A stretch of 64,000 bases of DNA from Octopus vulgaris (taxonomy: Eukaryota), in contig OX597836.1 in NCBI GenBank assembly GCA_951406725.2, forward strand, positions 24,614,001 to 24,678,000, in the 5' to 3' direction. The position numbers and the translations under genes are program-made. The notes beneath the pieces were generated by a model. It was not told where the DNA came from. It did not search any database and saw nothing but the letters and a program-made list of their open reading frames with translations. Positions 15,828 through 54,162 of the stretch are shown in pieces. How positions within the stretch are numbered: the stretch's first letter is position 1; every line of letters begins with the position of its first letter.

Positions 15828-16326
15828 CGTGTGTGTGATTGTATGTGTCTGTGGGTGTGTGGGTGTTTGTGTACGTTTGTGTGTGTCTTTGTGTGTGTGC
15901 GCGTGTGAGTATGTGTGTTTGTGTGTGTGAGGGTGTGTATGTTCGTGTGTGTGTGTGTTTGTGTGTGTTTGTGTGCGTGCGTGTTTGTGTGTGTGTGTCG
16001 TGTGTGTGCGTGTGTGTGTGTGTGTGACCACCGCTTGAATACCGACGTCAGTGTGTTAGCGTCCCCGTAACTGAGCGTTTCAGCAAAAAGACCGGTAGAA
16101 TAAGTGCCAGGCTCAAAAAGGAAATCAGTAGGAGAATCGATTCGTTCCACTACAAATTCTTGACGGCAGTGCCCCAGTATGGCCGCGGTCTAATGCTTGA
16201 AACAAGTCAAAGAGAAACGAGAAAAGCTCTTTTAGGCTGTTCAGGAAGACGAGACCGAACGACTTCATGAAGTCAATATAACTGAAACCGGTAAGAGATA
16301 AAAGATATATATATATATATATATAT

Positions 16327-17262
16327 AATTAAACAATTTAGGAATGGCCTTAATAGGCCATTCGTCCACTAGAAAGAGCAGCCATAACTCAAACCGCTAA
16401 GTAGTAATTCAGAAATTAGGTGAACATTTAAAAACATTTAATCAATTTAGGGTAGCAAAAAATTCAATAGAAATTTATCGCTACCAGCGGTCTAGTGGGA
16501 AAGAGAAAATAGTCAAAGACTAAATATATAAAATTAAAATTAAAATTAAACAATTTAGGAATGGCCTTAATAGGCCATTCGTCCACTAGAAAGATAAATT
16601 AGGGTAAACGTTTTTAAATTTTCACCTAATTTCTGAATTACTACTTAGCGGTTTGAGTTATGGCTGCTCTTTCTAGTGGACGAATGGCCTATTAAGGCCA
16701 TTCCTAAATTGTTTAATTTTAATTTTAATTTTATATATTTAGTCTTTGACTATTTTCTCTTTCCCACTAGACCGCTGGTAGCGATAAATTTCTATTGAAT
16801 TTTTTGCTACCCTAAATTGATTAATTGATAATTTTCTGACTAATTCTGAGATTGAATCGGCAGTTTATATTTACTGCTGATAAGTTGGCGCGAAAACGAT
16901 GGCATTGATACAGACGCCTCGTGTATATCAGTCTCTCCCGGTTTCTTTACTGATGAAGTGTAACCCATGGTAGATTGACTTAATTTAATTTAATTAAGCT
17001 AGTTTACCATTAAAAACACCGAAACGATGCATCGTATAAAGATGAATTAGGGTAAACGTTTTTAAATTTGCACCTAATTTCTGAATTACTACTTAGCGGT
17101 TTGAGTTATGGCTGCTCTTTCTAGTGGACGAATGGCCTATTAAGGCCATTCCTAAATTGTTTAATTTTAATTTTATATATTTAGTCTTTGACTATTTTCT
17201 CTTTCCCACTAGACCGCTGGTAGCGATAAATTTCTATTGAATTTTTTGCTACCCTAAATTGA

Positions 17263-17266
<4 letters not shown>
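16327..17266 (+). mobile_element. Penelope-like / retrozyme-like non-coding element: 448-nt unit, partial tandem direct repeat and two inverted 5' fragments, inserted in (TA)n
   Basis: Direct repeat 16590-16824 matches 17038-17266. Segments 16327-16440 and 16438-16594 are reverse complements of parts of that repeat. A hammerhead lies at 16944-17042, and (TA)n flanks both sides. Confidence 0.85.
16944..17042 (+). ncRNA. Type I hammerhead ribozyme with extended stem II
   Basis: TCTTTA-CTGATGA-A-GTGT...ACAC-C-GAAA-CGATGCATCG-TA-TAAAGA. It has a 6-bp stem I, a perfect core and a palindromic stem III, with predicted GUA cleavage after 17036. Confidence 0.85.
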
Positions 17267-17335
<69 letters not shown>

Positions 17336-17383
17336 AAACAAGTCAAAATAGAAAATGCTAAAATAATTTTATAAAGAACATTT

Positions 17384-17421
17384 CAGTACCGGTTTCGGTC
17401 ATTTTGAGACCTTTTCAACTG
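17384..17421 (-). ncRNA. Minimal hammerhead ribozyme with compensatory U3-A8 core, in a ~210-bp insert (17332-17543) between (TA)n tracts
   Basis: Minus strand: CAG-TTGAAAA-GGTC-TCAAAAT-GACC-GAAA-CCGG-TA-CTG. Confidence 0.72.
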
Positions 17422-17539
17422 TAACGATTAAATAATTAAATTTAGAAAAATTAAAAGAAAAGTTTTTTTAAAGGAATATTTGTATAGTGTTCAAATATAA
17501 GTGGCATTCTGCCTTTCTCTGTCTCCCTTGTTTGCACAC

Positions 17540-53349: not shown

Positions 53350-54162
<813 letters not shown>

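Follow-up and report, generated by a model that had tools for sequence, protein, structure and literature searches.

A non-coding hammerhead repeat of Octopus vulgaris forms head-to-head insertions in (TA)n tracts with two paired internal end sites

The window, a stretch of 64,000 nucleotides of the Octopus vulgaris genome, holds one copy of a repeat family whose non-coding units of about 470 nt each contain a hammerhead motif, and whose insertions are built of head-to-head arms that lie in (TA)n and end at two fixed positions in the unit, sites A and B. By its anatomy the family is a non-LTR retrozyme, and a new one with unusually clear insertion mechanics, for which cleavage and a circular RNA are predicted from sequence. 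We are highly confident of this identity and of priming at two sites, taken together. The whole account, in which a Penelope-like reverse transcriptase-endonuclease (RT-endonuclease) probably acts in trans on a predicted circular RNA monomer, is one that we consider reasonably probable. The first-pass annotation of the window had suggested a retrozyme or the pseudo-LTR of a Penelope-like element (PLE), and the hammerhead units, the two-arm anatomy and the one-sided tail agree with that assignment, with RNA processing as a predicted trait. In the open literature, we found no description of the family and none of a retrozyme whose two sites are strictly paired; an annotation may already exist in subscription papers, supplements, Repbase or Dfam.

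The window copy (Table 1) has a layout that is both tandem and inverted, without LTRs. It is wider than the span originally annotated, because an inverted arm reaches left to about 16328, and both of its ends sit in (TA)n, where a target-site duplication is unreadable. The stop-to-stop frames that overlap it are all shorter than 150 aa, and the 2-kb bin that contains the element has a GC content of 0.32. A direct repeat (16587-16727 versus 17035-17175, 98% identity) has a spacing of 448 nt, which drops to 442 beyond a 6-nt indel, and the direct arm spans 677/448 = 1.5 turns; the 448-nt period with about 1.5 copies read earlier from 16590 and 17038 is thus borne out. The period is peculiar to this copy, which has a 32-nt deletion and a 12-nt insertion relative to its close relative at locus L002 (468 nt). 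The inner and outer parts of the inverted arm are linked by a same-strand jump over a TAAA microhomology, with the ribozyme skipped. Same-strand template jumps within an arm over short microhomology were seen at 16435-16441 of the window, where the jump lands on site B, and at L206:2290. In the flanks, the minus strand at 17332-17470, across the right TA tract, looks like the 3' terminus of a different element, whose variant hammerhead core (TTGAAAA ... GAAA CCGG TA) is similar to that of the 781-aa RT+GIY-YIG family described below. On the left, a short interspersed repeat of a common kind is followed downstream by a degenerate hammerhead-like stretch at 16255-16304, which runs up to the TA tract.

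Table 1 Features of the family member in the window
Feature	Coordinates	Strand	Basis
(TA)n target, left side	16305..16327		sequence
Inverted arm, outer part; unit positions about 17-129; ends at site A, into (TA)n	16328..16440	-	repeat comparison
Inverted arm, inner part; unit positions about 80-224; ends at site B	16438..16594	-	repeat comparison
Head-to-head junction of the arms; inverted microhomology AAAGA/TCTTT	16590..16594		sequence
Direct arm, 1.5 turns, ends at site B	16590..17266	+	repeat comparison
Site A signal, first turn: hairpin then CCTAAATTG; second turn at 17130-17159	16682..16711	+	62 exact (TA)n junctions at site A
Type I hammerhead; long stem II, palindromic stem III, A.C beside A9; predicted cut after 17036	16944..17042	+	structural scan, covariation
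Site B signal: hairpin then CCTAAATTG; direct arm (3') and 100-nt tail both end here	17219..17266	+	77 exact (TA)n junctions
(TA)33 target, right side	17266..17331		sequence

The hammerhead was the single match of a structural scan of both strands of the window, and the stretch 16935-17050, with the long stem II, folds with a z-score of -3.65. A full core and a cut after A17036 had been proposed for it, and all core bases are indeed present: stem I pairs 16944-16949 with 17037-17042 (6 bp), CUGAUGA occupies 16950-16956 and GAAA 17021-17024, and a palindromic stem III is followed by the GUA triplet at 17034-17036, after which cleavage is predicted. The caveat is the position beside A9, where A16957 faces C17020 instead of the usual G-C. 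A G-C pair there requires one bulge on each side in this copy; a bulge after A9 has been described for Penelope ribozymes (PMC4209133, in the part of the text consulted). Probably because stem II is long, no hammerhead family appears among the best 150 Rfam matches for the window (120 weaker ones exist besides), which are miRNA and snoRNA models driven by microsatellites. The isolated hammerhead fold has an energy of -15.3 kcal/mol, compared with -25.1 kcal/mol for a fold with stems I and II and without stem III, a difference that carries little weight.

A type I hammerhead is present in every tandem unit of the family, with core changes in some copies. In an alignment of 25 rows, 94.6% of cells are paired and four pairs in stems II and III show double changes; the paired fraction falls to about 40% or less once the fold is slid along the alignment, and none of 500 shuffles scored as high, in a control that ignores the relatedness of the rows. 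Stem III occurs as three palindromes in these rows and as a fourth in a sister family. This conservation supports selection on the hammerhead, whose self-cleavage is predicted. The position beside A9 is unpaired in 18 of the 25 rows and in most of the youngest subfamily, where it reads A.A; cleavage, and hence circle formation, should therefore be weakened in the latter. At four loci (L007, L025, L084 and L094) the canonical G-C is present but U4 of the core has changed to C (CCGA), while the G-C is missing from most copies whose core is intact. Weakened ribozymes in the family seem to have arisen by more than one route.

Searches of the 2.8-Gb genome recovered 94 matches with the 677-nt query, from 40 scored of 2313 candidates, and 408 exact matches with a 20-nt ribozyme pattern comprising stem III and the cut motif, which had none in the control. 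Complete units are 468-479 nt long, with 474 nt (35 of the 61 measured) and 473 nt (13) as the prevailing lengths. Because units on different chromosomes differ by as little as 0-1 bases, part of the family has moved recently. Assembled contigs of three runs guessed to be RNA and of one unlabelled run cover the unit, in contigs that carry no end, strand or circle information. The sister family (L237-L266, for example L256; also L137:430-780 and L027:2401-2616) has a 470-nt unit of 73% identity and a canonical hammerhead with G-C beside A9. Its stem I is swapped and its stem III palindrome kept, and the A/B layout is the same, with a motif that reads CCTTATATT at both sites.

Arms end in (TA)n at site A, about 125 nt past the predicted cut, or at site B, 224 nt past it, with roughly 100 nt between the two, and each site is preceded by a hairpin and CCTAAATTG. 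The site hairpins are kept across 30 aligned copies, with some double changes. For statistics on arm ends we picked insertions by their 3' junction alone, to avoid bias: 77 exact junctions with (TA)n at site B and 62 at site A, the latter adding 52, with none in reversed-pattern controls. The first copy search was left out, except for four loci that also have an exact site B junction, because a query that starts at the cut favours copies that start there. The resulting 129 insertions comprise 220 arms, with the likely duplicates L095/L096 and L102, which is cut by the locus edge, kept in the sample.

A second, inverted arm is present in 91 of the 129 insertions. The script assigned 52 as B+A, 30 as A+B, one as A+A and one as B+B; in seven the second arm ended elsewhere, and 38 had none. 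On inspection, the A+A case and one of the seven proved to be A+B, which adds two insertions to the 82 paired by script. The sole B+B call is the window copy itself, whose inverted arm jumps from a B-ended segment to an A-ended one further out. No clean A+A or B+B insertion occurs among the 129; independent choice of sites would yield many same-site pairs. Automatic A+A calls at L131, L204, L210 and L221 came from internal TA-rich tracts or short arms, and these are likewise A+B on inspection. Arm pairs that stop at the same place are in excess: the two stops lie within 10 nt of each other in the unit for 13 of 50 pairs, against 3.7 by permutation (0 of 20,000 as high). In 19 of the 50 pairs, sequence missing from the B arm is present in the A arm, which is therefore more than a fold-back of the B arm. 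The tail stands at one end only and corresponds to two internal start sites, both downstream of the hammerhead; by analogy with PLEs the A and B ends are a Penelope-like signature of a 'tail' and internal priming.

These observations can be arranged into a mechanism of five steps. A tandem locus would be transcribed, its hammerheads would cut some transcripts to unit length and the ends would be ligated. A protein would nick both strands of the TA tract and prime reverse transcription inside the RNA, by extension from the anole Poseidon element (PMC11167929, in the part consulted). The end positions place one start at site B and the start on the other strand at site A. From there, arms run for variable distances, from under 50 nt to 6.8 turns in L205, which has more than two turns on its opposite arm as well, and pass the cut site without a scar; copying beyond one round of the unit, as the annotation had envisaged, is plainly seen. 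Finally, the cDNA ends would be joined through short inverted microhomology or a few added bases.

The composition of multi-turn insertions bears on the template. We compared 64 units from 24 young insertions (28 loci were given, 4 of them without a complete unit in range) at 18 informative columns. The 24 insertions carry 15 haplotypes, and 16 of 19 multi-unit insertions are uniform at all 18 columns, the other three differing at one column. Unit pairs from opposite arms are identical in 24 of 28 cases, versus 9% of pairs from different insertions (mean of 6.6 differences). Such uniformity over turns and arms favours one circular monomer as template, on the inference that new variants can fill every turn of both arms only if lineages pass through a single unit, a passage that a circle would provide simply. 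Circles cut by ribozymes and ligated were proposed in 2014 as templates for reverse transcription of more than one unit (PMC4209133, as consulted), and we lean towards a circular template here. L105 and L111, in which a variant is repeated in alternate units, weigh against it, because one monomer circle does not predict them. We also entertain, more tentatively, that a dimeric Penelope-like enzyme primes both TA strands from one 470-nt circle, with one subunit per site, and rolls around it several times. This arrangement would explain the strict A+B pairing, the single haplotype in both arms, the multi-turn arrays and the arms that stop at the same place.

The same element with the same two-site priming could instead copy an uncut, multi-unit linear transcript of a tandem locus, with a ribozyme of low activity or with a role at another stage of the cycle. 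For the anole Poseidon element, the consulted part of PMC11167929 gives uncut RNA as the chief substrate in vitro, and the non-canonical pair beside A9 in most young copies and the alternating variants of L105 and L111 point the same way. Passage through the cut site is equally expected of this template, and a homogeneous array would also yield pure daughters without being cut, but 15 haplotypes in 24 insertions, nearly pure over turns and arms, call for repeated passage through a single unit. Daughters could moreover be no longer than their source array and should inherit mixtures, and no array of more than ten ribozymes occurs among the first 100 of the 408 matches listed. We therefore regard an uncut template as unlikely.

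Of the readings that involve cleavage, the one originally put forward takes a linear, ribozyme-cut RNA as the template, with copies beginning at its 5' end, and names a pile-up of genomic 5' ends at the cleavage site as the check. Arms reach the cut site 190 times and read through it in 181 of these passes (about 95%). The nine stops within -3 to +5 nt, one of which is the window copy, compare with 5.1 expected from the flanking 100 nt (P = 0.078). Another of the nine, L215 at -2, is an alignment over-extension into TA and not a true end. Exactly at +1 we count 1 stop in 185, against 0.6 expected. A wider interval, -3 to +12, chosen after seeing the data, contains 16 stops versus 9.2 expected (P = 0.026), with 3 versus 2.0 in the loci fetched later, and the 9-nt interval at the cut ranks third of 52 such intervals, tied in rate with the second. 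Arms ending at site B cross the cut at least once in 43 of 77 cases and twice in 16. In the sister family (30 similarity-ranked loci, 2 of them unanchored and two pairs of which are the same insertion), 25 reach the cut; the script finds no stop there and inspection finds one (L258). With 9 of 190 against 5.1 expected and 0-1 of 25 in the sister family, the ends are scattered rather than piled up, and any weak excess at the cut is not more than small, under twofold. A cut linear template is therefore already refuted as a rule for the family and is very unlikely overall, even though the window copy starts 1-6 nt past the cut and one arm of L004, from the similarity-ranked set outside the 129, starts exactly at +1. 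A circular template predicts no pile-up, so the half of the earlier idea that invoked a circle survives and is strengthened.

The start of the window copy deserves separate consideration, as it was the coincidence of copy boundary and cleavage site that first drew attention. The boundary does lie near the cut, and not exactly at it. The first base past the cut should be T, whereas 16589 is G, and AAAGA at 16590-16594 is common to the direct and inverted arms, a 5-nt inverted microhomology that accords with the caveat, raised with the claim, that the first matching bases are shared with the inverted fragment; for these reasons we place the start 1-6 nt past the cut. The direct arm most likely halted there because the microhomology lay there. 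Proximity to the cut is probably chance aided by microhomology, it is doubtful that the boundary reflects a cleaved RNA end, and the coincidence has little weight in itself.

Growth of short insertions into arrays by later unequal crossing-over, in the manner of a satellite and as proposed in a 2026 preprint (10.64898/2026.07.22.740005, part consulted), would accommodate the 469-nt variant unit found twice in L016/L111 and the alternating variant of L105, but is the most improbable reading, as the inverted arms of the arrays both still end at the fixed sites A and B, units 0-1 bases apart on different chromosomes leave it little time and both arms are multi-turn in L205 and L208.

The trans-acting enzyme was sought among elements with an RT and a GIY-YIG nuclease. 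The octopus element itself contains no RT plus GIY-YIG ORF, and the window gave no tblastn match. A genome search for GIY-YIG returned 148 matches from 150 scored of 6136 candidates, including a young RT+GIY-YIG family with an open 781-aa frame in which GIY-YIG scores above the Pfam cut-off and RVT_1 just below. A CxxxxCxxC linker, of the type given for Neptune and Nematis in the consulted part of Craig et al. (PMC8557442), precedes the nuclease. Nine copies differ at 8-83 positions in 2343 nt, and they target (TA)n with two 3' ends 40 nt apart (a 40-nt tail). None of the 42 GIY-YIG loci tested of the 6136 candidates has an autonomous element whose pseudo-LTR shares sequence with the unit, so the 781-aa family is a candidate helper only. 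Searching by way of the diverged sister family turned up no ORF but a further family, itself non-coding, and L144, the one locus with a hit, was rejected as a helper, since the hit is a nested fragment absent from 19 relatives. In L172-L183, some 950 nt beyond the stop codon of the 781-aa family, lies a hammerhead-like fold with a palindromic stem III and a core that begins TTGATAA rather than CTGANGA, and several copies have a second long frame upstream of the ORF. Locus L060 has a truncated copy of the young PLE at 1-1275 (97.6% protein identity); a TA tract lies between it and a site B end some 225 nt away.

As far as the consulted parts of the cited papers go, the closest relatives by anatomy are the animal non-LTR retrozymes of Cervera and de la Pena (2020, PMC7229834), which likewise have a type I hammerhead per unit and form short, low-GC, non-coding tandems from dimers to multimers. 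Their units are 150-450 nt, whereas the octopus unit is about 470 nt with a long stem II. The octopus family strictly targets (TA)n and has paired head-to-head arms whose ends are fixed; the text consulted of that paper describes neither (no hits for 'microsatellite' or 'rolling'). Circular RNA has been shown for those retrozymes, whereas the octopus family is known from its genomic record. Plant LTR retrozymes (PMC4918200) are also non-autonomous and hammerhead-bearing, with a proposed circular intermediate, but have type III hammerheads, LTRs and 4-bp target duplications, none of which is found in the octopus family, where stem I is open and the units are in tandem.

The insertion anatomy is instead that of PLEs. 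PAc Poseidon of the green anole (Frangieh et al. 2024, PMC11167929) similarly uses two internal RT starts downstream of its hammerhead, with a tail between them at one end. In PAc Poseidon and other PLEs (PMC11167929; Craig et al. 2021, PMC8557442), both target strands are cut and extended and an inverted, 5'-truncated arm results; shared as well are partial tandems, AT-rich or (TA)n targets and no pile-up at the ribozyme cut. The octopus family differs in having no ORF, a tail of about 100 nt versus 30-40, and sites formed by a duplicated hairpin-plus-motif signal. Its A and B ends are strictly paired in the genome, whereas PAc Poseidon showed no strand difference in vitro (PMC11167929). The 2026 preprint (bioRxiv 10.64898/2026.07.22.740005), in the part consulted, derives retrozymes from PLEs as non-autonomous forms and calls the mobilisation mechanism unresolved. 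The octopus family matches its description in co-occurring with RT+GIY-YIG elements, in forming monomers, dimers and multimers, and in a unit within 51-972 nt. The preprint argues from co-occurrence and pLTR similarity and invokes growth of the satellite type. For the octopus family it is the anatomy of the insertions that makes the link, with no pLTR similarity seen in the 42 GIY-YIG loci compared.

The value of the family lies in its insertion record, which ties two-site internal priming, shown in vitro for one PLE, to a retrozyme. If the dimeric-enzyme, one-circle reading is true, that record would amount to evidence at the genome level that an animal retrozyme undergoes rolling-circle reverse transcription, in a family that was active recently and whose candidate helper is still intact. 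As a test system the family is compact, with start sites mapped on a 470-nt RNA, canonical and weakened ribozymes in different subfamilies, near-identical young insertions and an intact candidate enzyme.

Another hammerhead repeat, whose stem II is long and whose stem III is palindromic, is present at L150:130-570 and at the far end of that locus, its inverted copies flanking a nested Penelope-like fragment. The flanks of PLE copies at L149:2480-2790, L173, L179 and L181 contain more short elements, arranged head to head within TA tracts and similar at their ends to sites A and B; several non-coding families may have the machinery in common. Within the window, the 183-nt period at 53506-53936 combines a long TA tract with a short unique piece that resembles the ends beside the PLE copies in L150 and L184.
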